NCBI GenBank assembly: GCA_030648265.1
Contig: JAUSHX010000028.1
Span: 249 to 64,248, forward strand
Direction: 5' to 3'
Length of the DNA: 64,000 nt
From: a bacterium
Lineage (GTDB): Bacteria; Patescibacteriota; Minisyncoccia; Phycocordibacterales; UBA2100
The translations under genes and the position numbers were made by a program. The notes beneath the pieces are model-generated. The model was not told the DNA's origin. It ran no database searches and was given only the letters and a program-made list of their open reading frames with translations. Of this stretch, positions 2,760 through 63,613 are shown in pieces; the stretch's first letter is position 1; every line of letters starts with the position of its first letter.

Positions 2760-3911
2760 ATGTCTTTCTCCCTCGGCGGTATTTCAAAATTCTTCAAGTC
2801 CTCATTCGGAGGAAGTTCCGAGGGGAGCATTATCGGCATTGACATCGGTGCGTCGTCCGCGAAAATTGTCCAGTTGCGCGCGTCCCGCGGGACGGCGATT
2901 CTTGAAACGTACGGAGAAATCGCTCTCGGGCCCTACGGAGGCCAGGCAATCGGCAAAGCGGTGAAACTGACTCCGGAAAAAATTGCCGAGGCGCTCAGCG
3001 ATCTCATGCGCGAGGCAAATGTGACCGCCCGTACTGGCGGGCTCTCCATACCCTTTTCTGCGAGTCTCGTGTCGGTGCTTGAAATGCCGAAAGTGGACAA
3101 AGATTCTCTAAAGAGAATGGTTCCGATAGAGGCGCGCAAATATATTCCGCTTCCCGTATCGGAAGTCACTCTTGATTGGTTCGTCATACCGCATGAGGAG
3201 CAGGGGGAGAGCGCGTTTGACCAGGTGGAGGCGCCCAAACCCGTTCACGCGAGAATGCAGGAAATCCTCCTCGTCGCCATACATAATGAAATCCTCCGGG
3301 ACTATCAGAAGATATCAGAGGCAACCGGGCTCAACGTGAGTTTCTACGAGATTGAGATTTTCAGCGCGACTCGTTCCTCAATGGGGCATGGCGCGGCGCC
3401 TGTCTTGGTTGTTGATTTGGGCGCGGCGACGACGAAGATGTATATTGTGGAGCGCGGGATTGTGCGCCTTACCCACCTGCTCACATCCGGCGGACAAAAC
3501 ATGACGGATACGCTGGCGCGCTCGCTCTCATGGGAATTTGAAAAAGCGGAGCGCGTGAAGAGGGAAATCGGACTTGTCAGTTCAACCGCGTACAGCACGG
3601 ATGAGAACGACCGGATAAAGACGGCATTGTTATCAACACTCTCCCGTGTGTTTTCTGAGATAGACCGAGTATTATTAAGCTACGGGCAGCGATATAACAA
3701 AAACGTGTCGAATGTCCTCTTGACTGGAGGAGGGGCATCGCTACCCGGCCTTGCGGAACATGCCAAGGGGTCGTTGCACGCGGAAGTTCTGATTGCGGAT
3801 CCTTTTTCGCGCTCGGAGGCGCCCGCATTTCTCCGAGATGTTCTGCGGCAGATTGGTCCGGGGTTTTCCGTTGCGGTGGGTCTTGCGTTGCGGAATTTGA
3901 AGCAAGGATAA
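2760..3911 (+). CDS. pilM: type IV pilus assembly protein PilM (actin-like ATPase fold)
   Basis: IGIDIGASSAKIVQL N-terminus, 383 aa, first gene of the pilus operon. Confidence 0.8.
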   Translation: MSFSLGGISKFFKSSFGGSSEGSIIGIDIGASSAKIVQLRASRGTAILETYGEIALGPYGGQAIGKAVKLTPEKIAEALSDLMREANVTARTGGLSIPFSASLVSVLEMPKVDKDSLKRMVPIEARKYIPLPVSEVTLDWFVIPHEEQGESAFDQVEAPKPVHARMQEILLVAIHNEILRDYQKISEATGLNVSFYEIEIFSATRSSMGHGAAPVLVVDLGAATTKMYIVERGIVRLTHLLTSGGQNMTDTLARSLSWEFEKAERVKREIGLVSSTAYSTDENDRIKTALLSTLSRVFSEIDRVLLSYGQRYNKNVSNVLLTGGGASLPGLAEHAKGSLHAEVLIADPFSRSEAPAFLRDVLRQIGPGFSVAVGLALRNLKQG

Positions 3912-4022
3912 ATATGTTCCAATCTACGAATCATCCGAATACTACAAATATCTACAAATTCAGGCATTTTTTATTCGTAGACATTCGTTGATTGGCATTC
4001 ATTTGCAGATTGGTACACACAT

Positions 4023-4733
4023 ATGGAAACGGGAATACAAAATACTTTTATACCGCACGATGTCTCGCAACCTGCGCAACGAGAGCGCGCGCGGGAGGGC
4101 GGTATCATGGATCTCGTGATGCTCGTGTCTATTGTTCTCCTGGTTGCGTCTTTGGCTCTTGCGGCAGGGGTTTTTCTGTACCAGCAATATCTGGATACGA
4201 GCAGTAAAAGCAAAATTAATCAACTCAATATTGCCAAGGCGCAGTTTGACCCGGTGCTCATTCAGGAATTTTCACGCTTAGATGACAGGATGCGGGACGC
4301 GGATTTGATTTTGGGCAACCACATCGCCCCGTCCGTATTCTTCCATATGCTGGAGGCAAATACCCTGACCACGGTATCATTTCGTTCCCTTGATTTTCAG
4401 GCGGGAAGCGATGAGGGTATGTCTATAAAAATGGGAGGAATCGCTAAGAGCGTGAATTCCATAGCGCTGCAGGCCGACTTTTTCAGCAAAGTAGGCATTA
4501 TAACGAGCCCGATTTTTTCCAACATTGACCGTCAACTGGACGGGGTGCATTTCAGTTTTTCTGCGCTCGTAAATCCATCCGCAATACGCTACGCGCAATT
4601 GGCGGCAGCGGGAAATGGAGGAAATGCCGTGCCAACGCTTTCTGTGCCCACAGCGCCTTCGGCGGCCCCAACCCCAACCCCGGCTCCCGAATCAGGATTA
4701 TTTCCTTCGCAGCCGGCGAACCAGCAACAATAA
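4023..4733 (+). CDS. PilN-like bitopic membrane protein with Pro/Ala/Thr-rich C-terminus
   Basis: Single N-terminal TM segment (LVMLVSIVLLVASLALAAGVFLY) and position between pilM and pilO. Alternative start at 4107. Confidence 0.45.
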   Translation: METGIQNTFIPHDVSQPAQRERAREGGIMDLVMLVSIVLLVASLALAAGVFLYQQYLDTSSKSKINQLNIAKAQFDPVLIQEFSRLDDRMRDADLILGNHIAPSVFFHMLEANTLTTVSFRSLDFQAGSDEGMSIKMGGIAKSVNSIALQADFFSKVGIITSPIFSNIDRQLDGVHFSFSALVNPSAIRYAQLAAAGNGGNAVPTLSVPTAPSAAPTPTPAPESGLFPSQPANQQQ

Positions 4734-4753: not shown

Positions 4754-4949
4754 TCCCAGCCCCACTTTTGCAAAACACATTTAGAAAATTATGACAAAAT
4801 TACGCAAGCAGGCATATATATCGGCAACGCGCTCCGCCCAGCAAGGGGAGTCCTATTCGGACACGCACGTTGCATGTAACGTATCGGCAAAAGTGGAGTG
4901 GGACGTAAGAGTTTCTAAGCTCGCTTCGCTCACTAACAAACTCTAACGT
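4754..4949 (+). repeat. hairpin element copy A (central IR plus right-arm hairpin abutting the pilO ATG)
   Basis: IR TCCCAGCCCCACTTTTGC (4754-4771) pairs with GCAAAAGTGGAGTGGGA (4887-4903). Right arm: CGTAAGAGTTTCTAAGCTCGCTTCGCTCACTAACAAACTCTAACGT-ATG. Confidence 0.8.
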
Positions 4950-7813: not shown

Positions 7814-8218
7814 ATGTCAGATAACAGCGAAAAACTAAGCATTCTACTGGTAGACGATGACAAGTTCCTCGTGGATATGTACAGCATGAAATTCACGGCT
7901 AAGGGCTACAATGTGAATGCATGCTTGTCGGCCGCGGATGCGCTTCAAGTGCTTCGCGACGGCTTTCTGCCGCAGGCAATAGTTTTTGATTTGGTTATGC
8001 CGGAGCACGACGGATTTTACTTTTTAAAAGCTCTCATTACCGAAAATCTAAAGCGCGGCGCATCGCTCATAGCGTTAACGAACGAGAGCAATGATGATAC
8101 AAAAGCAAAGATTACCGAACTTGGAGCGGACAGGGTCATTGTCAAGGCGACCATGATTCCGTCGGAAGTTGTGGGCACCGTGGAGGAGGAGATTGTCAAG
8201 AAGAAAAAGGAGCGCTAG
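7814..8218 (+). CDS. single-domain response regulator (REC, CheY/PilH-like)
   Basis: ILLVDDDKF ... FDLVMPEHDG receiver motifs. Confidence 0.75.
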   Translation: MSDNSEKLSILLVDDDKFLVDMYSMKFTAKGYNVNACLSAADALQVLRDGFLPQAIVFDLVMPEHDGFYFLKALITENLKRGASLIALTNESNDDTKAKITELGADRVIVKATMIPSEVVGTVEEEIVKKKKER

Positions 8219-8374
8219 CGACTATTTTCGCTTGACCCAGCACCTTTGGCTGGGTGTTGAAAAGTAAGCGTGTATGGGAATGCATAGGGTATACTTATAA
8301 ACGATATGTCGTATGTTGAACAAAAGGTGCTGGGCATAAGAATTTCTAACTCGCTCCGCTCATAACAAATTCTT
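8201..8374 (+). repeat. triple-hairpin intergenic element copy B
   Basis: The left arm overlaps the stop codon. Central IR ACCCAGCACCTTT (8235-8247) pairs with AAAGGTGCTGGG (8323-8334). The right arm, with AGAATTT/AAATTCT stem, ends at the pilT ATG. Confidence 0.8.
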
Positions 8375-9436
8375 ATGGACTATAGCGCCCAACTAAAAAA
8401 GTACATCAACGTGTTAGTGCACGAAGGCGCCTCGGACGCTCATTTCTCCGTCGGCGTGCACCCGACTATCCGCGTTGCGGGGAATCTCTCTCCCATGCTC
8501 AAAGAGCCGGTGTTGACAAAGGAAGACACTCTCGGTTTCTTGACTGCACTCACCACGCCACTGAATCAAAAGCGGTTTTTTTCAGAGCAGGAAATTGATT
8601 TTGCATACGAAACAGAGGACAAAGTCCGTTTTCGCGGGAATGCATTTTACCAGCGCGGCTCGGTGAGCATTGCACTCCGCCTAATCCCCCGAAAAATCAG
8701 CACTATCGCTGAATTGAACCTGCCGGAGATTCTTACGACTTTCGCCCGAAAGTCGCAAGGATTTTTTATCGTTGTCGGACCAGTTGGCCAAGGGAAAACG
8801 ACGACTCTGGCCTCTATGATAGAGCTCATCAACACCGAAAGAATGGAGCACATCGTCACCATTGAAGACCCGATAGAGTATGTTTTTGAGCCGAAGCTGT
8901 CGCTCGTGGAACAGCGCGAAGTACGCATAGACACGAAAGATTTTCCTTCCGCACTTGCCAGCGCGTTCCGCGAGGATATTGATGTGCTCATGGTTGGCGA
9001 GATGAGGGGGCCGGAGACCATGGCAGCCGCTGTCACAGCCGCCGAAACAGGGCACCTGGTTTTCTCTACGCTCCATACGAATGATGCCGCACAAACGATT
9101 GACCGCATTATTGATACATTTCCGGCTTCCCAGCAGGACCAGATACGGCTCCAGCTCGCGTCCTCCATGGCCGGTATTTTTTCGCAACGTCTAATCCCGC
9201 GCATTTCCGGGGGTCTTATTCCTGCGTTTGAACTTCTCATCAACAACAAAGCGGTATCAAACCTGATCCGCGAGAAGCGCACGCATGAATTAAATACGGT
9301 GATAGAGACCAACTCCGAAGAGGGAATGATTGATATGAACCGCTCGCTTGCGGAATTGGTGGCGCGCGGCGAAATCACGGTTGAGAGCGCATACCAGTAT
9401 TCTCTCAATCCGAATATGCTCCAAAAATTGTTATGA
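8375..9436 (+). CDS. pilT: twitching-motility retraction ATPase PilT
   Basis: 353 aa, Walker A GPVGQGKTTT, PilT-type C-terminus. Confidence 0.9.
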   Translation: MDYSAQLKKYINVLVHEGASDAHFSVGVHPTIRVAGNLSPMLKEPVLTKEDTLGFLTALTTPLNQKRFFSEQEIDFAYETEDKVRFRGNAFYQRGSVSIALRLIPRKISTIAELNLPEILTTFARKSQGFFIVVGPVGQGKTTTLASMIELINTERMEHIVTIEDPIEYVFEPKLSLVEQREVRIDTKDFPSALASAFREDIDVLMVGEMRGPETMAAAVTAAETGHLVFSTLHTNDAAQTIDRIIDTFPASQQDQIRLQLASSMAGIFSQRLIPRISGGLIPAFELLINNKAVSNLIREKRTHELNTVIETNSEEGMIDMNRSLAELVARGEITVESAYQYSLNPNMLQKLL

Positions 9437-9627
9437 AAAATAAGGAGCAGAGCGACTATATTTTTCTAACCCCCCACCACTTTAGTATCCCACAACCTTA
9501 TCTTAGATTTGATACTATGTTGAGACGGTCTCGACGAAATCACAAGATTAGAATATGAGAACGGATACTAAAGTGGTGGGGGGTGTAAGATTTTCTAAGC
9601 TCGCTCCGCTCGCTAACAAAATCTAAC
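9437..9627 (+). repeat. triple-hairpin intergenic element copy C
   Basis: Left-arm hairpin AAAAATA..GAGCAGAGCGA..TATTTTT. Central IR CCCCCCACCACTTTAGTATCC (9470-9490) pairs with GGATACTAAAGTGGTGGGGGG (9563-9583). Right arm: TGTAAGATTTTCTAAGCTCGCTCCGCTCGCTAACAAAATCTAAC-ATG. Confidence 0.85.
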
Positions 9628-10839
9628 ATGTCCGTCTTCACCTACACAGCAATGGATGCCGAGGGAAACGAAAGAGCCGGCACCATTGATGCGGTAAACC
9701 TGGATCTTGCCATTATTGCGATACAGCGGCGCGGGCTCGTCATATCCAACATTGAAAGCGCCGATAAACCAGCGTCTAAATTCGGGGGGCGCATTGCATT
9801 TTTTGACCGCGTAAAGAACAGCGATATTGTTATTCTTTCCCGCCAGATTACGACTCTTTTTGAAGCGCAAGTTTCAGCGCTCCGCGCTTTTCAGCTTTTG
9901 GCGTCTGAAGCGCGCACGCCAAAGCTTGCGGAGAAATTAAGCGCTATCGCAAGCGACATACAGAGCGGCAGTACGATATCCACCGCGCTCTCGCATCACC
10001 CGGATGTGTTCACGCCGTTTTACGTGAACATGGTGCGGGCGGGCGAAGAATCGGGGAAACTGGATGAGACGTTTTCCTTTCTTGCCGATTACATGGACAG
10101 AAATTATGAAATCACCCAAAAGGCGAAGAACGCGCTTATCTATCCGGCGTTCGTAATGTCCACATTTATTATCGTGATGATGCTCATGATGACTCTCGTA
10201 GTCCCGAACTTGGCAAGCATGCTTGCCGATGTCGGGCAGAGCGTCCCGATCTACACCAAGGTTGTCATCGCCATGAGTTCATTTGTGTCCAGATACATCC
10301 TGCTTATCATTATTTTGCTCGTTTTTCTGGTTGTATTTTTGGTGCGTTACTCGCAGACCGAGGCCGGGGAGAGGGCGTTATCAAAAGCGCGGATGCAGAT
10401 TCCCTACATCGGGTCCGTGTATCAGAAACTTTTTCTTTCGCGCCTTGCCGACAACCTCTCCACGATGCTCCGTAGCGGTATCCAGATTTTGCGCGGCATT
10501 GAAATAACCGGAACGGTGGTGGGCGACCACGTCTATGAAGATATTCTCAAAGCAGTTTCGTCCGATGTGAAAGGCGGCATGCCGGTTTCGGAAGCATTCA
10601 GGCGGCATCCGGAAATTCCGGGAATCGTCGTCGCAATGATAAAAATCGGCGAGGAGACGGGAAACATGGGAAGCATTCTTGATACAATGGCGAAGTTTTA
10701 CAGACGGGAGGTGAACAGCTCAATTGATACACTCGTCAGTTTGATAGAGCCGTTTATGATAGTCATGCTTGCGGTCGGCGTTGGCGTGCTCCTGTCCGCG
10801 GTTCTTATTCCTATATACAATATAGCTTCTAGCTTCTAA
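9628..10839 (+). CDS. pilC: type IV pilus platform protein PilC (GspF family)
   Basis: 403 aa with two T2SSF repeats and three TM regions. Confidence 0.9.
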   Translation: MSVFTYTAMDAEGNERAGTIDAVNLDLAIIAIQRRGLVISNIESADKPASKFGGRIAFFDRVKNSDIVILSRQITTLFEAQVSALRAFQLLASEARTPKLAEKLSAIASDIQSGSTISTALSHHPDVFTPFYVNMVRAGEESGKLDETFSFLADYMDRNYEITQKAKNALIYPAFVMSTFIIVMMLMMTLVVPNLASMLADVGQSVPIYTKVVIAMSSFVSRYILLIIILLVFLVVFLVRYSQTEAGERALSKARMQIPYIGSVYQKLFLSRLADNLSTMLRSGIQILRGIEITGTVVGDHVYEDILKAVSSDVKGGMPVSEAFRRHPEIPGIVVAMIKIGEETGNMGSILDTMAKFYRREVNSSIDTLVSLIEPFMIVMLAVGVGVLLSAVLIPIYNIASSF

Positions 10840-10953
10840 CCCCTTACCACTTTGATATCCCTCAACACTCTTCAGAACCGATACTTAGTTGAAACGGTCT
10901 CTGCGATGTATTGGATTTGATGTTTCAGGAACGGATGTCAAAGTGGTAAGGGG
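10840..10953 (+). repeat. central-hairpin element copy D (no conserved right arm)
   Basis: CCCCTTACCACTTTGATATCC (10840-10860) pairs with GGATGTCAAAGTGGTAAGGGG (10933-10953). The loop is homologous to the loop of copy C. Confidence 0.8.
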
Positions 10954-11045
10954 TTGTCCACACCCTCTCGTTGAGATGCCGGAAAGAGGTATACAATTGA
11001 GCCACGCGCTTCAAAGTGCCGATTAAAGGTTAATAACGATTAAAC

Positions 11046-12676: not shown

Positions 12677-13501
12677 ATGCTTGCTGTAATGTACGGTTTG
12701 TTCGGTCTTATAATCGGCAGTTTCGTAAATGTTGTTGTATTGCGCTCCGGAGTGCTTTCACTTTCCGGCAAAAGCGGATGTATGTCGTGCGGCGCAAAAA
12801 TCAAATGGTATGACCTTATTCCGGTTCTTTCTTGGCTTGCACTCCGCGGAAGATGCCGCGCGTGCGGAAGCCGCATTTCCGTGCAATATCCAGCGGTGGA
12901 ACTTGGAACGGGGGTTTCTTTCGCGCTTATCGGCGGGGCCTCTTTGCCGCCTCTCGCGACACTCCTCGGGTTGCTTATATGCTCGGTTCTTATCGCAATT
13001 GCAGTCTATGACCTCCGGCATACCATTATTCCGGATGCGTGGGTGTGGAGCTTCAATGCACTAGCTCTTATCTCTATCTTTCTTCCTGAAAGCAGTCTGA
13101 CTGCCTTTAGCAGTCAGACTGCTTTCGATACCATCGCAGGTCCCATTGTCGCCGCTCCGCTTTTCGTTCTATGGCTCGTGTCACGCGGAAAATGGATTGG
13201 ATTGGGTGATTCCAAACTCGCTCTGGGGATCGGCTGGCTTCTAGGTTCGCTTGCAGGCATTAAAGCGGTACTCTTGGCTTTCATTCTCGGAGCGATAATC
13301 GGGCTTGCGCTGATTTTCTTTTCATCTGCCTTGTGGAATAGGATTGTGAAGCAATTTATCCAGCACCACTCATGGCACATGAGTGGTGCTGGGATTACAA
13401 TGAAGAGTGAAATTCCATTCGGACCGTTTTTAATCGCGGCTTGTCTGTTCGTATGGATATCACAGATATATCACATCCCGATTCCTTTTTTATGGCAGTA
13501 A
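12677..13501 (+). CDS. pilD: prepilin peptidase / N-methyltransferase PilD (A24 family)
   Basis: N-terminal CxxC..CxxC domain (CMSCGAKI ... CRACGSRI). Catalytic Asp motifs AVYDL and GLGDSKL. Confidence 0.85.
   Translation: MLAVMYGLFGLIIGSFVNVVVLRSGVLSLSGKSGCMSCGAKIKWYDLIPVLSWLALRGRCRACGSRISVQYPAVELGTGVSFALIGGASLPPLATLLGLLICSVLIAIAVYDLRHTIIPDAWVWSFNALALISIFLPESSLTAFSSQTAFDTIAGPIVAAPLFVLWLVSRGKWIGLGDSKLALGIGWLLGSLAGIKAVLLAFILGAIIGLALIFFSSALWNRIVKQFIQHHSWHMSGAGITMKSEIPFGPFLIAACLFVWISQIYHIPIPFLWQ
13088..13126. repeat. 39-nt perfect inverted repeat inside the pilD CDS, in frame
   Basis: GAAAGCAGTCTGACTGC-CTTTA-GCAGTCAGACTGCTTTC encodes ESSLTAFSSQTAF in a loop between TM segments. Confidence 0.85.
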
Positions 13502-15020: not shown

Positions 15021-15658
15021 CCCCTTACCACTTTTTCCATGAACGTGAGCTGAATCTCAAAAACGGTGCTAATCTCATGCAAAAGTCGCAAAGATGCAGT
15101 AGTCACGATTCCATTAGAAAAAGTGGTAAGGGGGGCTTTACTCTTGTGGAAACGCTGGTAGCGATTTCGTTGCTCACAATCGCGATTGTTGCTCCGATGA
15201 CTCTTACGACACAAAGTCTTGGAAGCGCCTATTATGCCCGCGACCAAATAACGGCTTTCCACATCGCGCAGGAGGCGATTGAGTCCGTACGGCATGCGAG
15301 AGACCGTAACGTCCTGAAAAATGCGCTCGGTACAACAGTGAATCTGCTTGATGGTTTTCCCGCTTTGAACGGCGACCCATTTACGGTTGATACGACCAAC
15401 GGTGACGCCATGGAACTGTGCTCCGGTACGTGTCAAGCTTTGAGAAAAAGCAACGAAGGGCTGTATGGCTATAATCCCGCATGGAATAAGACTTATTTTA
15501 CTCGTACCGTCAACGCAACATTCGTACCCGAAAGCAATAATGATGAGGTTAATGTTTCCGTAACAGTTTCCTGGCAGACAGGAAGTTTCAACAGCCGCTC
15601 TTTCACGATTTCGGACAATCTTTTCAGGTGGGTGAACGACGGAAGCGCGTCGCAATAA
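15017..15658 (+). CDS. minor (pseudo)pilin with 40-aa element-derived leader
   Basis: ATGA overlap with the previous gene. MTPYHFFHERELNLKN...RKSGKGG-FTLVETLVA. Alternative ATG at 15077. Confidence 0.75.
   Translation: MTPYHFFHERELNLKNGANLMQKSQRCSSHDSIRKSGKGGFTLVETLVAISLLTIAIVAPMTLTTQSLGSAYYARDQITAFHIAQEAIESVRHARDRNVLKNALGTTVNLLDGFPALNGDPFTVDTTNGDAMELCSGTCQALRKSNEGLYGYNPAWNKTYFTRTVNATFVPESNNDEVNVSVTVSWQTGSFNSRSFTISDNLFRWVNDGSASQ
15020..15135 (+). mobile_element. internally deleted GIY-YIG module (copy H)
   Basis: About 93 percent identical to copy G over 122 nt by manual alignment. Identity collapses right after GGGGGGCTT. Confidence 0.6.

Positions 15659-16240: not shown

Positions 16241-16244
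<4 letters not shown>
15666..16244 (+). CDS. minor (pseudo)pilin with heptamer-repeat-encoded leader
   Basis: ...CQPRERG-FTLLLAALVSSVVLAL. There is no in-frame ATG, GTG or TTG between the repeat and GFTLL. Confidence 0.65.
15674..15753 (+). repeat. heptamer-array inverted repeat (GTTTACA)n / (CTGTCAA)n
   Basis: Left arm 15674-15702 and right arm 15722-15753. Each 7-nt register has 6 complementary positions and 1 mismatch. Confidence 0.8.
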
Positions 16245-18700
<2,456 letters not shown>

Positions 18701-20979: not shown

Positions 20980-21104
20980 TCTGCCTTGAGATTTTATCGC
21001 GTCGTTTTTCCCGCGCATAGCCACGTGACAAAATGACGCCAACGCAAGCGCTACTTTGTTTTTACGTGGTTGCGAGAGTTGGAAATTTGCAGTATATTCA
21101 CGCG

Positions 21105-21179
21105 AGCGGGGTGGAGCAGTAGTAGCTCGCAAGGCTCATAACCTTGAGGTCGCAGGTGCAATTCCTGTCCCCGCAACCA
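21105..21179 (+). tRNA. initiator tRNA-Met (CAT), CCA encoded
   Basis: AGCGGGGTGGAGCAG...GGCTCATAACC...CCCCGCAACCA. There is a 1:72 mismatch and three G-C pairs in the anticodon stem, as in bacterial tRNA-fMet. Confidence 0.85.
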
Positions 21180-21213: not shown

Positions 21214-21327
21214 CGTCACGTGGCTTGCGCCAGCAGGACATGTGTGAGCGAAGCGATTTACGTGGTTGAGCCGCGTGGTGAACGGAGTGAGCTTTACGCG
21301 GCAACTTATTCACGTAAGAATGTGTAC

Positions 21328-21591
21328 ATGTACCATGTTTACCTTTTAGAAAACCAAGACGACAAAAGTTGGTATATCGGCTACAGCGCCAATCTCAAAC
21401 AACGAATCGAGCGGCATCAAAAGGGTGATGGCGCTCGCACAACAAGTAGAAAGGAAAACTGGGATTTGATTTACTATGAAGCCTACAAAAACGAACAAGA
21501 TGCAAAAGGACGCGAGCGCTTCCTTAAAAGCGGGTCTGGCAGAAAGTTCCTAAAAAAACAGCTCGCACACTATTTGGTTAGTGAATTGTGA
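21328..21591 (+). CDS. stand-alone GIY-YIG nuclease (YhbQ/UPF0213-like)
   Basis: MYHVYLLEN..SWYIGYSANLKQRIERH..LIYYEAY..RERFLKSGSG. Confidence 0.75.
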   Translation: MYHVYLLENQDDKSWYIGYSANLKQRIERHQKGDGARTTSRKENWDLIYYEAYKNEQDAKGRERFLKSGSGRKFLKKQLAHYLVSEL

Positions 21592-25785: not shown

Positions 25786-25887
25786 ATGCGCTACACACTT
25801 TTTGAACAACTGAAGAAGGTCTTGGAAAAGGACGAGCGATTGGTGGCCGAGGGGGAATTAAATCGAGCGACATTCTCACATTCTTGA
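25786..25887 (+). pseudogene. 33-codon ORF stub truncated by the first palindrome
   Basis: MRYTLFEQLKKVLEKDERLVAEGELNR.. then a stop inside hairpin 1. The resemblance to N-termini of some RM-type proteins comes from memory only. Confidence 0.25.
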
Positions 25888-26006
25888 GAATGTGAGAATG
25901 TCGTGGGAGGGGGAGAATCTATTCTAGTATTTTGCAAAATACTAGAATAGATTGGGAAGGGCGACGGGGCGGGTCATTTCAATGTTTTGCAAAACATTAG
26001 AATGAC
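25869..26006. repeat. array of three AT-rich palindromes separated by G-tracts
   Basis: Hairpin 1 at 25869-25902 (15-bp stem), hairpin 2 at 25916-25953 (perfect 38-nt palindrome), hairpin 3 at 25973-26006 (2 mismatches). The linkers include GGGAAGGGCGACGGGGCGGG. Confidence 0.85.
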
Positions 26007-37467: not shown

Positions 37468-37787
37468 AACTTGGAATTGTCCTGCAATCAAATGGAGCAG
37501 AACGTGCGTGGAATACACTCCGCCTTGGAATTACTTCGCTTAAGGCGGGTCATAAAGTGGATATCTTTTTAATGAGCGAGGGATCAGAACTTGACGCTAT
37601 TCCCGACAGCGAGAATTTTGATATCTCCGCGAAGGTGAAAGAATTCAAAGGGCTGAACGGAGACATCTATGCGTGCGGCACTTGTCTTAAAGTGCGCGGC
37701 AAGCAGGAAAGCAAGGTATGCCCTGTTTCCACAATGGCAGATTTGCTGAAAATGGTTGAGGGTTCGGATAAATTACTAGTTTTTTGA
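37464..37787 (+). CDS. DsrE/DsrF-like family protein
   Basis: [22 protein letters not shown], 107 aa, 4-nt overlap with ilvD. Confidence 0.55.
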
Positions 37788-37901
37788 TAAAGAAGTTGTT
37801 ATGAGCGAAGCGAATTACAAATTCTTTACCCAGCACCTTTCGCGAAAGGTGCTGGGTGTAAGATTTACTAAACTCATTATCATTCGTTAAGAAAATCTAA
37901 C
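37785..37901 (+). repeat. triple-hairpin intergenic element copy J
   Basis: Left arm ..ATGAGCGAAGCGAATTACAAATTCTTT. Central perfect 30-nt palindrome ACCCAGCACCTTTCGCGAAAGGTGCTGGGT (37828-37857). The right arm ends at the ilvC ATG. Confidence 0.85.
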
Positions 37902-40568: not shown

Positions 40569-40658
40569 CTATCCCATTACGACCTGTAACGTCTATGACG
40601 CTAGCTTATGCGGCCGCACTAGCTAGCGTTATATGTTGAATAGATAATGATGGGATAG
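40569..40658. repeat. 90-nt nested palindrome upstream of the ATP-grasp gene
   Basis: Outer stem CTATCCCAT/ATGGGATAG. Inner stem ACGCTAGCTTATGCGGCCGCACTAGCTAGCGT. Confidence 0.7.
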
Positions 40659-47567: not shown

Positions 47568-47573
47568 ACATAC

Positions 47574-47928
47574 CTGCGTTAGGCAGTCGCTGGTCCGCAA
47601 GGGCTAGAGGAAAGTCCGGACACGCCCACGTTTCGTAAGATATGTGGAGCACGGTAGCGGGTAACGCCCGCCGGGGTAATCCTAGGGATGCGAACAGAGA
47701 CGGTTTTTTGCGAGAGCAAAAAACCGCCCCGTGAAATCGCGAAAGCATATTTCACTGGGGCGAGATTGAGCAGTTAAAGGCTCAAGGTGCAACGGCAAAA
47801 ATCCTACCTGCGTGCAAGGTCGTATCAAATCGTGCCATCGGTACGGTTAGAAGAACCGCTTGAGGTGATTGGCAACAATCATCCCAGATAAATGACTGTC
47901 CTCGACAGAATCCGGCTTACAAATGCAG
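47574..47928 (+). ncRNA. rnpB: RNase P RNA (bacterial type A)
   Basis: GAGGAAAGTCCGGAC (P4 5' strand), GGTAACGCC, ACAGAATCCGGCTTA (P4 3' strand), P2 GGCAGTC/GACTGTC, P1 CTGCGTT/AAATGCAG. Ends accurate to within about 5 nt. Confidence 0.85.
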
Positions 47929-48035
47929 CGAAATGAGCGGAGCGAAAAAGCTTCGCTTTTTCGTTTCCGAATGAGAAAATTTGCACGAAGTTGGGCGCAG
48001 TGCAGCCGAGCGCAGCGAGTACTGCACAGAACATG

Positions 48036-52250: not shown

Positions 52251-52339
52251 ACAGTCTACAGTTTACAGTGCACAGAAAGTCGTTAGAAATTTCGGTTTGT
52301 GATTTTCTCTGTCAACTGTAAACTGTCCACTGTCTACTA
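52251..52339. repeat. heptamer-array inverted repeat, intergenic copy (murJ-lepA)
   Basis: CACAGTCTACAGTTTACAGTGCACAG ... CTGTCAACTGTAAACTGTCCACTGTCTACT. Same ACAGT/ACTGT register as 15674-15753. Confidence 0.8.
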
Positions 52340-54758: not shown

Positions 54759-54893
54759 GTTAGATTTTGTTAGAGAATGAAATGAGCTTAGAAAATCTTA
54801 CACCCTGTTAAATGCGACTCCGTCGCCCCGCCTACGGCGGGATTTAACAGGGTCAAGAATCTGTAATTCGCTGCGCTCATAACAATATTCTAG
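54759..54893 (-). repeat. triple-hairpin intergenic element copy K (minus orientation)
   Basis: Reverse complement: left arm TTGTTATGAGCGCAGCGAATTACAGATTCTT, central ACCCTGTTAAAT...ATTTAACAGGGT with two inner hairpins, right arm GTAAGATTTTCTAAGCTCATTTCATTCTCTAACAAAATCTAAC-ATG. Confidence 0.8.
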
Positions 54894-54911
54894 ATGCTAA
54901 GATTATAGCGT

Positions 54912-61832: not shown

Positions 61833-61866
61833 ATATCTGCAGCCTTAAACCTACCGAAAACATTCT

Positions 61867-61904
61867 CATATTCTTAAGAATATGAGAATGTTTTTAGACC
61901 AAAT
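61867..61904. repeat. perfect 38-nt palindrome related to hairpin 1 of the 25.9-kb array
   Basis: AAAACATTCTCATATTCTT/AAGAATATGAGAATGTTTT compared with GACATTCTCACATTC..GAATGTGAGAATGTC. Confidence 0.85.
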
Positions 61905-62653: not shown

Positions 62654-62670
62654 ACGTTCTCCCAATTTCT

Positions 62671-62712
62671 AATATTCCATATCCTACGCCATGGCGTAGG
62701 ATATGGAATATT
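62671..62712. terminator. 42-nt perfect palindrome, bidirectional terminator between convergent genes
   Basis: AATATTCCATATCCTACGCCA/TGGCGTAGGATATGGAATATT. Confidence 0.7.
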
Positions 62713-63613
62713 ATTTTTGTAGCCAATTGATTACTCGGCCAGAAATTCTATTCGTTTCCTTCGGATTTAACCATTTAATTGCTTTATTACGTCGCCAGTA
62801 AGTAATTTGCCTCTTTGCATAACGCATGCTCTCGCGCACCAACATTTCGTCAAATTCTTTGCGCGAGATTTTCTTCTGCAAAAGGAGGGCTAGAAATTTG
62901 TAATCAAGACCTAGAGATTCCATTTTTTTGTACGACAGACCTTTTTTGTGCAGAGACCTTGCCTCCGCTATCATACCTAGTCTAATTCGCGCGAATAAGC
63001 GAATAGTGATTCTCTCTTCCAATTTTTTCATAGGTAGCGCGATACCTATCCACAGCACATCATACCAAGGACCGTCCTTGGTATTGGATACATGGATATA
63101 GCCCAAAGCGGAGGCAATTTCAAGAGCACGGACAAGACGCCGTTTGTTGTGCCTGTCTATTTCTTTGGCTCGCCGGGGGTCGCGTTTTTTCAGGAGCGCG
63201 AATAATTTCTCCGCAGTCATTTTCTCAAGCTGTTCCCGAAGCTTGATGTTCATGGGTACATTTGGCAGAGCAATCCGGCCAAGCAAGGCGTCAATATAGA
63301 ATCCCGTGCCTCCGGCAACTATGGGTAATTTACCCCTACACGCAACTCGGACGGCCGTCCGAGTTGCGTGTGTTACGAAATCATGAGCAGTGAATATCCG
63401 TTTTGGAGAGACAACATCTAACAAGTGATGAGGGACGCCCCTCATTTCTTGTTTTGTTATTTTTCCCGTTCCTAAGTCCAGTCCTTTGTATACTTGCCGC
63501 GAATCTGCGGAAATGATTTCGCCCCCGAATTTGCGAGCGAGCTCAACAGCCAAGGCGCTTTTGCCGGATGCCGTAGGGCCGACAATAACAAGCACCTTTT
63601 GCCTCTTTTGCAT
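62711..63613 (-). CDS. miaA: tRNA dimethylallyltransferase
   Basis: VIVGPTASGKSALAVELA P-loop, 300 aa. Confidence 0.9.
   Translation of the reverse strand: MQKRQKVLVIVGPTASGKSALAVELARKFGGEIISADSRQVYKGLDLGTGKITKQEMRGVPHHLLDVVSPKRIFTAHDFVTHATRTAVRVACRGKLPIVAGGTGFYIDALLGRIALPNVPMNIKLREQLEKMTAEKLFALLKKRDPRRAKEIDRHNKRRLVRALEIASALGYIHVSNTKDGPWYDVLWIGIALPMKKLEERITIRLFARIRLGMIAEARSLHKKGLSYKKMESLGLDYKFLALLLQKKISRKEFDEMLVRESMRYAKRQITYWRRNKAIKWLNPKETNRISGRVINWLQK

Follow-up and report, generated by a model that had tools for sequence, protein, structure and literature searches.

A modular intergenic hairpin element flush with gene starts in Candidatus Kaiserbacteria and related lineages

Six copies of a modular element in the window

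The 64,000-nucleotide stretch of DNA analyzed here (the window; positions 249 to 64,248 of contig JAUSHX010000028.1, assembly GCA_030648265.1) comes from a member of the Patescibacteria, or candidate phyla radiation (CPR), a group that makes up a large share of bacterial diversity and about whose gene expression almost nothing is known. It carries six copies (A, B, C, I, J, and K) of an intergenic element composed of a left-arm hairpin (L), a central inverted repeat, and a right-arm hairpin (R) that abuts the start codon of the next gene, the served genes being pilO, pilT, pilC, ligA, ilvC, and a 44-amino-acid open reading frame (ORF). The element family is real, widespread, and undescribed; its conserved core is a GC-based hairpin directly followed by the 43-nt R hairpin. 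In the best reading, the element separates functional RNAs, and the functional RNA downstream begins where R ends at its 3' edge.

A search of the window with R1, a covariance model built on the right arm, returned exactly six strong R matches, and all six copies are present where the original prediction had placed them; the left arms appear as weak opposite-strand matches to the same model. Proteins encoded downstream of the element were named from their N-terminal sequences, with a Pfam check for the six window genes. Designations such as L003 and L007 refer to the loci used for comparison with the window. The parts of the six copies are as follows.

4755-4904, plus strand: central palindrome of copy A, with arms at 4755-4771 (CCCAGCCCCACTTTTGC) and 4887-4904 and a loop of ~115 nt
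4905-4947, plus strand: R module of copy A (R1, 67.5 bits), followed by GT and then by the pilO ATG (4950); PilO is a Pfam match
8201-8234, plus strand: L arm of copy B, with a near-identical L arm at the orthologous locus L007
8235-8335, plus strand: central palindrome of copy B, ACCCAGCACCTTT ... AAAGGTGCTGGGC
8336-8374, plus strand: degenerate R of copy B (R1 match 8336-8374/6, 37.9 bits), abutting the ATG at 8375
9434-9468, plus strand: L arm of copy C, starting on the pilT TGA stop codon (9434-9436)
9469-9584, plus strand: central module of copy C, 116 nt with 22-bp perfect basal arms, homologous to the lone module at 10838-10955
9585-9627, plus strand: R module of copy C (R1, 67.5 bits), flush with the pilC ATG (9628); T2SSF Pfam match
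16243-16277, plus strand: L arm of copy I, overlapping the upstream TAA stop codon (16242-16244) by 2 nt; conserved in L022
16278-16318, plus strand: central hairpin of copy I, ACCCAGCACCTTTG type, 41 nt
16319-16361, plus strand: R module of copy I (R1, 64.1 bits) with an AT-type mini-stem, flush with the ligA ATG (16362); LigA domains are a Pfam match
37789-37827, plus strand: L arm of copy J, beginning 1 nt past the TGA stop codon (37785-37787) of a DsrE-like ORF
37828-37857, plus strand: central palindrome of copy J, perfect and without a loop
37858-37901, plus strand: R module of copy J, 44 nt (R1, 62.8 bits), flush with the ilvC ATG (37902); KARI Pfam match
54895-54907, minus strand: -10 box of copy K, TATAAT plus 7 bases, ~3 nt upstream of L; conserved in L068
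54856-54891, minus strand: L arm of copy K
54802-54853, minus strand: central hairpin of copy K, ACCCTGTTAAAT type; the L068 ortholog is of the ACCCAGCACC type
54759-54801, minus strand: R module of copy K (R1, 61.9 bits), flush with the ATG of the 44-amino-acid ORF (54758 down to 54624)

The spacers are indeed filled from stop to start, with upstream stop codons at or in L and R against the ATG. The predicted distance of 0 to 2 nt between element and ATG likewise stood: R adjoins the ATG directly (0 nt) in copies C, I, J, and K, and copy A leaves 2 nt. In copy B, R is shortened or degenerate and runs into the ATG of a gene for a PilT-type ATPase (T2SSE Pfam match), and R is intact in the ortholog at L007; the response-regulator ORF upstream ends with a TAG (8216-8218) that falls within the mini-hairpin GAGCGCTAGCGA of L. 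A left-arm hairpin, described as part of the element, is found in the other copies but not in copy A, where the upstream ORF ends at 4733 and the sole GAGCGNAGCGA is the minus-strand reading of the R arm. The 44-amino-acid ORF that follows copy K is conserved in L068. The RNA fold of the copy C L arm has an energy of -8.5 kcal/mol (z = -3.3). In the window, the 18-mer R motif has 5 exact matches against 1.26 expected (an expectation calculated at 3-mismatch tolerance), GAGCGNAGCGA has 17 against 5.8, and ACCCAGCACCTTT has 8 against 1.1.

R lies flush with gene and RNA starts in other genomes

The R module alone, with four variable stem positions left free and the ATG excluded from the pattern, was scanned against one genome for each of 185,579 bacterial and archaeal species (GTDB). 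The scan yielded 97 matches in 94 stretches from 39 species-level genomes, nearly all of them metagenome-assembled genomes (MAGs) of Candidatus Kaiserbacteria, Parcubacteria, or Paceibacterota. The preference for the gap between stop codon and ATG extends beyond the window: an ATG stands at 0 nt in 74 of the 97 matches and at +2 in 10, and a GTG follows TCTAAC at 0 nt in one, where chance would give about 1.5 per offset. Divergent R modules that fall outside the pattern, detected with a hidden Markov model or a covariance model, are flush too. In the sample, about 1 in 10 genes has R flush at its start codon.

The served genes include those for ribosomal proteins S7, L24, L6, L17, L36, S13, S11, S4, L20, L11, L15, and L21, as well as S19, S18, S14, L29, L23, and L22; within the S10, spc, and alpha ribosomal-protein clusters, several member genes each have their own element. 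SecY, RpoA, RpoB, NusA, FtsZ, MetK, SSB, GlmS, ATP synthase subunits b and gamma, GroEL, BipA, FtsX, PilT, PilC, and LigA are encoded by further served genes. In several species, R precedes the same gene, namely, that for FtsX, S7, MetK, FtsZ, S13, L20, SSB, or PilT.

Genes for structured RNAs are served as well. In other lineages, the hairpin plus R runs precisely up to the 5' nucleotide of mature tRNA-Ala (L050, from Gribaldobacteria, L095, and L108) or tRNA-Phe (L094, L097, L098, and L102) and, likewise precisely, up to position 1 of the tmRNA model (L044 and L107). In other loci, it ends at a GGAGG or GAAGGGGG Shine-Dalgarno (SD) sequence (L036, L080, L081, L086, and, before EF-Tu, L106). 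The R pattern had no match in 2.9 million viral contigs, and a phage origin of R was rejected on that ground. In L094, L-like modules, that is, modules in the reverse orientation of R, lie 4 to 5 nt past the 3' ends of tRNA-Leu and tRNA-Val (2704-2745 and 3869-3911); in the tRNA-Leu case, a T run follows, as it would in a terminator.

Architecture and covariation of the modules

The element is modular, as proposed, its R, L, and central parts being separable. R is a hairpin of 43 to 44 nt that pairs from G1 to C44, with the consensus 5'-GUAAGA-N4-CUAA-N-CUC-(2-bp mini-stem + 3-4-nt loop)-UC-G-N-UAA-N5-UCUAAC-3'. It contains a conserved UC/UC internal loop, and two A.A mismatches, 3.42 and 13.32, are also conserved, spaced by one helical turn. 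When R is reverse complemented, L can be aligned to it over its full length, at an identity of ~60 to 65% by estimate rather than computation; because L is a reverse-complement homologue of R, the whole element is a long imperfect palindrome. On its sense strand, L mirrors R with a GNA triloop on a 2-bp stem next to tandem G.A pairs (GA-GC-GNA-GC-GA). The same 11-mer also tops unrelated hairpins at 21246, 22885, 47935, and 48008.

The central palindromes fall into discrete families, including ACCCAGCACC, ACCCTGTTAAAT, ATCCAGCC, and CCCC..ACCACTTT, and into size classes of 41, 52 to 58, 95 to 109, and 116 nt; the 76 distinct central segments are 25 to 117 nt long, apart from one of 261 nt. They are independent repeat modules that also occur alone after stop codons, as in the following cases.

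10838-10955, plus strand: lone central-type module without arms, directly after the pilC stop codon
12616-12657, plus strand: lone CCCCACCACTTTTGCC palindrome, followed by TGcGATAAT, 8 nt, and an ATG (12677), the layout of a leaderless-type promoter
15021-15133, plus strand: lone CCCCTTACCACTTT palindrome module, directly after a TGA stop codon

At the site of copy I, L022 has a central module of ~115 nt rather than 41 nt, closed by the same ACCCAGCACC stem. The 116-nt central module (9469-9584 and 10838-10955) contains a conserved inner core, ...GTATCC...TTGAGACGGTCTC...GGATAC..., which is found again in other species (L022 and three FtsX loci, L002, L032, and L033); in L022, this core sits within the ACCCAGCACC stem, where the window has a short hairpin only. 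The 116-nt module appears to be a nested repeat of its own.

Pairing in R was counted in two alignments, one of 88 distinct R sequences and one of 125 distinct covariance-model matches. All of these counts are to be read with the facts that the R copies are related to one another, that several alignment columns are set by the search pattern, and that the 125-sequence alignment was fitted to the model. The outer-stem variants quoted for the right arm are as described, and so is the exchange of GC for AT in the inner mini-stem (copies A, B, and C versus I, J, and K). Selection for pairing in the right arm is borne out by the 88 sequences, in which 88.9% of the cells pair, versus 76.5% in column shuffles (reached in 0 of 500); sliding the partner column drops the pairing to at most 46%, and double-change cells number 165, versus 55 in shuffles. 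Compensatory changes occur in 7 of 14 R pairs, and pairs 7-38, 9-36, 10-35, 15-30, 19-26, and 20-25 each show 3 to 5 Watson-Crick pair types. The covariation held with more copies: among the 125 sequences, 12 of 16 pairs have changed on both sides, and on all five measures, 0 of 500 shuffles attain the observed value. Between copy K and L068, pair 7-38 changes from U-A to G-C, which may be a swap rather than a point compensation because the central module has been replaced too. The original prediction took the covariation as a sign of selection on folding; pairing is indeed selected, but a fold in the mRNA sense is unproven, the noncanonical positions of R favoring the opposite strand.

Several other structural proposals were discarded. 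A long alternative L-R hairpin, or switch, was rejected since duplexes between L and R of a single element have the same energies as those between mismatched partners (apical, -9.6 versus -9.8 kcal/mol; full length, -15.3 versus -16.2 kcal/mol); L and R of one element do not coevolve. A mini-ORF from the ATG of type-1 L arms is not conserved, and type-2 L arms have no ATG. The boxA (NusB/NusE) likeness of GCUCGCUAACAA was set aside because those positions covary as stem partners. Pairing of the R apex with GAGCGGAGCGA after the RNase P RNA is perfect for copies B and C, though not for most R variants, and was dropped.

Promoters, terminators, and start-codon context

At the 5' edge, the stop codon of the upstream ORF lies within the first bases of L in 22 of 37 codirectional cases; in other elements, L or the first hairpin is preceded by a T-run terminator or a sigma70-type -10 box. 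In at least 11 loci, such a box precedes the first hairpin by 1 to 9 nt, in several of them with a matching -35; in L004, L099, and L036, it lies 15 to 27 nt upstream of the central hairpin. Promoters are conserved between species: the TATAAT of copy K is also present in L068, and that of FtsZ (TATGAT or TACTAT) is found in three species (L021, L060, and L077). The first hairpin is also preceded by a -10 box in L100, L106, L094, and L098, the order in L100 being TATAAT, 6 nt, hairpin, R, and ATG and that in L106 being the same before the EF-Tu SD. From the -10 boxes just upstream of the first hairpin, we infer that the cassette is transcribed; where a promoter is present, the transcript would begin at the base of the first hairpin.

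The element had also been considered as a promoter, a role that these canonical -10 boxes just upstream of the first hairpin do not bear out. R as a sigma70 promoter was rejected for want of consistent hexamers: the two common R variants carry a weak NANNAT at differing offsets, and the modules of SD-using lineages carry TAAGGCGT. A sigma70 promoter would have -35 and -10 hexamers spaced by 16 to 18 nt, with A2 and T6 in the -10, at 5 to 8 nt from the start; the promoter scan gave incidental matches only, with no enrichment in the element region. A terminator role fared no better for the central hairpins, which are followed by GTAAGA and are unlike intrinsic terminators because no T tract follows; the terminator scan called no central hairpin, and its total of 19, versus 14.1 +/- 5.1, is at chance level.

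As originally observed, none of the six genes has an SD before it, but this is not distinctive, because the lineage is SD-poor and leaderless-rich. Among 579 long ORFs from loci carrying the element, the -10-like hexamer TANNWT peaks at -12 from the ATG (35, versus a background of ~5), and SD-like tetramers are barely enriched upstream of starts, which marks the lineage as one with few SDs and many leaderless-type starts. In Kaiserbacteria copies, the last 14 nt before the start read TAA(C/G)AA..TCTAAC, with no SD; in other lineages, a separate GGAGG follows R. The stringency of AUG use was dropped as a signature of leaderless initiation, being uninformative because ATG dominates 4-nt overlap starts too. 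No 16S rRNA, which would have shown the anti-SD at its 3' end, was found in the window or the loci. Window genes with a leaderless look include those at 12677, 61509, 61937, and 50534. The tRNA genes, for their part, have a sigma70-type -10 box just 6 to 9 nt before the mature 5' end (e.g., L058, L089, L055, and L068; in the window at 21055-21104, TTGCGA-17-TATATT-cacgcg-A+1, with +1 at 21105). Such tRNAs would have almost no 5' leader, though the window encodes an RNase P RNA.

A probable boundary between RNAs and the alternatives

The evidence establishes the anatomy, the covariation of R, the flush edges, the lineage breadth, the upstream promoters, and the SD-poor, leaderless-rich context; that the element is a boundary element acting at the RNA level is fairly probable. 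A flush R hairpin suggests an undescribed way of marking where the RNA of a gene starts in bacteria in which ribosome-binding sites are rare. Tentatively, and with less than even confidence, the element may be a punctuation cassette, in which processing at the 3' edge of R releases mRNAs that start with AUG and suit translation of the leaderless type. In such a scheme, transcription of the cassette would either start from a promoter, at the foot of the first hairpin, or continue from the upstream cistron by read-through. An endonuclease, or self-cleavage, would cut at or within 0 to 2 nt of the 3' base of R, so that the downstream mRNA would begin at its AUG and undergo leaderless translation. 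A substrate of the RNase III type would be provided by the long perfect central stem, and the L hairpin with its GA/GNA cap would stop 3' exonucleases at the end of the upstream mRNA or, with a promoter present, protect the 5' terminus; L and R would thereby both serve as exonuclease blocks after processing. RNase III, RNase J, and PNPase are retained across CPR bacteria (PMC12641178) and fit a scheme of double-stranded RNA cleavage and exonuclease-blocking hairpins.

It is conceivable, if doubtful, that the hairpin plus R is a dedicated 5'-end-maturation signal, cut at the 3' base of R by a nuclease or by the RNA itself. It might then convert read-through or leader-bearing transcripts into leaderless mRNAs and, elsewhere, set mature tRNA and tmRNA ends or give SD-first mRNAs. 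By analogy, and with the same doubt, such a signal could be a bacterial counterpart of mitochondrial tRNA punctuation that evolved in SD-poor CPR bacteria. A hairpin that defines RNA 5' ends would be a new solution to the translation of internal cistrons in a leaderless-type system and would point to an unknown nuclease, ribozyme, or mode of ribosome docking.

Several sets of observations weigh against cleavage at R. To begin with the mechanism, every processing step, cleavage included, is wholly inferred. We know of no bacterial nuclease established as cutting flush at the 3' base of such a hairpin, and RNase P generates tRNA and tmRNA 5' ends anyway. No new nuclease is required if the cassette instead stays on the mRNA as an uncleaved structured leader whose terminal hairpins protect against 5' and 3' exonucleases, a reading that we consider rather unlikely. 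RNase J, a 5'-to-3' exonuclease, is conserved in CPR bacteria (PMC12641178). Some loci do have a 5' untranslated region that is structured throughout, from the start site to the AUG (L100) or to the EF-Tu SD (L106). The Bacillus RNase J is reportedly blocked by 5'-terminal hairpins. At the same rather low probability, the leader could act as an insulator or could present the start codon for SD-independent internal initiation, for instance, and no more probably, as a meltable AU- or pyrimidine-rich enhancer of the S1 type or as a helix docking where the SD helix usually does. R is weak enough to melt, and in SD-using lineages it abuts the SD rather than the AUG. On the other hand, a leader leaves the exact end of R at mature tRNA and tmRNA 5' ends unexplained, a hairpin 0 to 3 nt from the AUG would fall within the ribosome footprint, and the conservation of nucleotides left unpaired in R suggests a specific recognition, not simply bulk structure.

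The strand on which R folds best also speaks against a signal read in RNA. On the mRNA strand, R is a weak hairpin (mean, -5.9 kcal/mol; z of -0.3 to -2.5 in the window), and in 56 of 56 elements, the complementary strand folds more stably; for L, the sense strand is the more stable one in 45 of 56. Non-Watson-Crick cells of R comprise 39 A.C versus 6 G.U overall and 19 versus 6 at pairs free of pattern constraint, and the central stems show no excess of G.U over A.C. The conserved mismatches of R (A.A, UC/UC, and A.C) become stable motifs on the template strand, namely, U.U, tandem G.A, a GNA loop, and G.U. GCGNAGC is exceptionally stable as a DNA mini-hairpin and much weaker as RNA, and such mini-hairpins occur in primase signals and in the promoters of the phage N4 virion RNA polymerase (vRNAP) (PMC13037366). 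That R folds better on the template strand is a puzzle that leaves room for a role at the DNA level.

We regard it as improbable that R is a template-strand hairpin or factor site that fixes the transcription start at its own 3' edge, and equally so that it works like the hairpin promoters of N4 or other single-strand initiation signals, with L and the center forming the terminator of the upstream unit. A constant spacing between R and the nucleotide at which an mRNA, tRNA, or tmRNA begins is what a promoter would yield, and the lineage does set ordinary -10 boxes 6 to 9 nt from the ATG and from the +1 of tRNAs. The template strand is the stable strand of R, and GCGNAGC mini-hairpins are found in N4 vRNAP promoters and primase signals (PMC13037366); in the commonest variant, a conserved C.T mismatch keeps a T that gives AAGAAT at -13. 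Yet R has no -35/-10 consensus, its 3' half is GC-rich (TAAGGCGTTCTAAC) in SD-using lineages, and the promoter scan showed no enrichment here. In at least 14 loci, the hairpin plus R has a canonical promoter upstream, which would be redundant, and the R modules outside Kaiserbacteria lack the template-strand GNA loop. To our knowledge, no hairpin-reading RNA polymerase occurs in these bacteria. With no GNA complement in the non-Kaiserbacteria modules, the A.A mismatches and the CUC/UCG loop are the only features shared across lineages, which suggests these unpaired bases as recognition features and L as a mirrored derivative of R.

A further difficulty for processing is a gene-free unit in L099 (200-370), which consists of a promoter, a long hairpin, R, and a T-run terminator with no ORF. 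It looks like a small RNA gene and suits a trans-acting RNA better than a processing signal. This unit would fit R as the binding site of a global RNA-binding regulator of a growth or translation regulon, a very unlikely reading in our estimation, though one compatible with the RNA-level models. Analogues would be 5' terminal oligopyrimidine (5'TOP) mRNAs and LARP1 in eukaryotes or CsrA and its decoy RNAs, with free hairpin-plus-R RNAs as the decoys, a parallel that we hold to be no less unlikely. Genes for translation, transcription, division, and chaperones, together with those for tRNAs and tmRNA, predominate in the set, and the two A.A mismatches one helical turn apart, together with the CUC/UCG loop, look like a recognition surface. 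However, pilO, pilT, pilC, ilvC, ligA, and the 44-amino-acid ORF are also served, which makes the regulon incoherent, no candidate protein was identified, and a binding site has no need of 0-nt flushness. Directly downstream of the unit in L099 (380-520), a divergent R-like hairpin (GTAGAGG...CACTAAC) is flush with the nusA ATG.

Finally, single genes can do without the element. Compared with copy A, L003 has an empty site, caaTAAcccATG (TAAcccATG). An unrelated ATG-flush spacer takes the place of the element in the window at 3974-4022 and in L007 before pilC. This second spacer family consists of about three TTYGTAGATTGG-like units and ends in ...GATTGGTACACACAT|ATG; because it occupies the element sites of relatives, the two kinds of spacer cassette are interchangeable. 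The window has no element before the gene at 4023, where L003, L049, and L025 have one, and keeps the 5' half of L there as coding sequence. At the conserved L arms of copies I and K, the central module and R have been exchanged en bloc. Elements are thus gained, lost, and swapped among related species, a point absent from the original account, and this syntenic turnover indicates that they are conserved as a class and dispensable or exchangeable at single genes. At the ligA site, L026 has an ACAGT/TGTAAAC-type repeat instead of the element.

Such turnover would be expected of selfish or near-neutral mosaic repeats (MITEs [miniature inverted-repeat transposable elements], repetitive extragenic palindromes [REPs] in bacterial interspersed mosaic elements [BIMEs], or Correia-like elements) spread by transposition in trans or by recombination, which we think unlikely here. 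The repeats would survive only in the tiny gaps between stop and start codons, and flushness and stop codons would then, just as improbably, reflect tolerance. The element as a whole forms an inverted repeat, L being similar to R in reverse complement; its central modules come in discrete size classes and are also found alone; presence or absence and en bloc swaps of center and R occur at orthologous sites; R has TAA in all three reading frames; and the central stems lack a G.U excess of the RNA type. Copy A has TAA on both sides, as TAA...TAAC, and an empty counterpart in TAAcccATG, but the right-hand TAAC belongs to the conserved paired end of R, so that it may or may not reflect a target-site duplication. 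Against selfish spread, R is kept before the same genes in several species and is present in 39 species-level genomes and also, without L, in distant lineages. Its distance of 0 nt to the start in 76% is much tighter than tolerance requires, and it is flush with tRNA and tmRNA too. No transposase-sized insert lies between the arms, the centers being at most 117 nt apart from one of 261 nt, and the viral contigs gave no match. Even if selfish, the elements would help annotation by marking true start codons and gene boundaries in Kaiserbacteria MAGs and would be an unusual case of palindromic repeats colonizing operons.

Comparison with known elements

That the element is not a described family agrees with Rfam, which has no match to it. 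Searched at the gathering threshold of Rfam 15, the whole window gave only the RNase P RNA and 6 tRNAs; E-value searches of copy I, L080, and L099 returned either nothing or hairpin matches of a generic, noise-like kind; and eight non-Kaiserbacteria loci gave only their flanking tRNAs and tmRNA. No description of the element was found in the literature on leaderless, intergenic, or palindromic features of CPR bacteria, Patescibacteria, or Kaiserbacteria. We rate it as a kind of structured intergenic repeat or leader element.

With REPs and BIMEs, the element shares imperfect palindromes of ~35 to 45 nt arranged as inverted pairs around linkers, L and R both folding as hairpins. Both kinds are extragenic mosaics of a few module types and are cotranscribed, as the element presumably is. 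REPs are reported to stabilize upstream mRNA as 3' hairpins. They lie after genes, however, with no fixed relation to start codons, and are limited to a species or genus, whereas R spans 39 species-level genomes plus distant lineages. A REP carries a 5' GTAG, whereas the R module starts with GTAAGA (GTTAGA on the other strand). REPs and BIMEs depend on the gene for a REP-associated Y1 transposase (RAYT); 10 window ORFs scanned against Pfam included no transposase, and no search aimed at RAYT was made. The terminal inverted repeats typical of MITEs are present, in the form of L versus the reverse complement of R, and in the ~740 kb searched for an autonomous relative with a transposase, no arm pair encloses an ORF-sized insert.

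Correia elements insert at TA. Like the element described here, these Neisseria repeats (NEMIS, or Correia repeat enclosed elements [CREE]) are 100 to 155 bp long, enclosed by inverted repeats, gene adjacent, and cotranscribed; their transcripts fold into hairpins that are bound or cleaved by RNase III, they vary in presence among strains, and they influence the expression of neighboring genes (PMC2649163, PMC2229807). A probable interplay with RNase III would be a further likeness of the element to them. They differ in having ends that create sigma70 promoters, an IHF site, and a variable distance to start codons, and they have neither covarying sub-hairpins nor a counterpart outside Neisseria.

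Among systems of RNA processing, animal mitochondrial tRNA punctuation likewise places a structured RNA between cistrons, with its 5' edge after a stop codon and its 3' edge before a start codon. In mitochondria, cutting at the tRNA edges gives leaderless, AUG-first mRNAs with no SD sequences. The present spacers are not tRNAs (neither ARAGORN nor the tRNA model of Rfam made a call within them), and a role for RNase P or RNase Z would be an analogy only, cleavage being conjectural. The intercistronic RNase III sites of phage T7 and the stabilizer hairpins of the ompA, aprE, and ermC type separate cistrons and block exonucleases, and they too are intercistronic hairpins or terminal hairpins flush with RNA ends. 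Unlike the element, they are single and idiosyncratic, are followed by a normal SD, and form no dispersed, modular, start-flush family.

The GCGNAGC mini-hairpin is shared with single-stranded DNA initiation signals, namely, the phage G4 origin, ssiA of RSF1010, and the N4 vRNAP promoters (PMC13037366). Here, the GA-GC-GNA-GC-GA cap lies on the sense strand of L and, in Kaiserbacteria, on the template strand of R, upstream of the start. The cap-to-start distance is ~22 nt in the element, versus ~11 nt in N4, and the cap is absent from non-Kaiserbacteria R. We know of no cognate enzymes of such signals in these bacteria. Integron attC sites have R''/R' core sites (RYYYAAC ... GTTRRRY) and belong to mobile promoterless cassettes near an integrase gene; ATCTAAC fits RYYYAAC, but its orientation is reversed and the flanking genes are syntenic housekeeping genes, and attC was rejected.

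Other repeats and genes in the window

Further long palindromes and inverted repeats, unrelated to the element, lie at 25868-26006, 52251-52333, 61857-61894, 62670-62713, and 40569-40658; among them are ATTCTAGTATTTTGCAAAATACTAGAAT, which occurs twice, and ACAGT-rich repeats. At 47935-47975, the RNase P RNA match (47571-47935) shares its final base with the start of the GAGCGGAGCGA 11-mer, after which come a CGAAAAAGC-TTC-GCTTTTTCG hairpin and TTT. A small ORF at ~21327-21591, just downstream of a tRNA and of GAGCGAAGCGA-containing hairpins, starts with MYHVYLLENQDDKSWYIGYS and looks, by eye, like a GIY-YIG nuclease.

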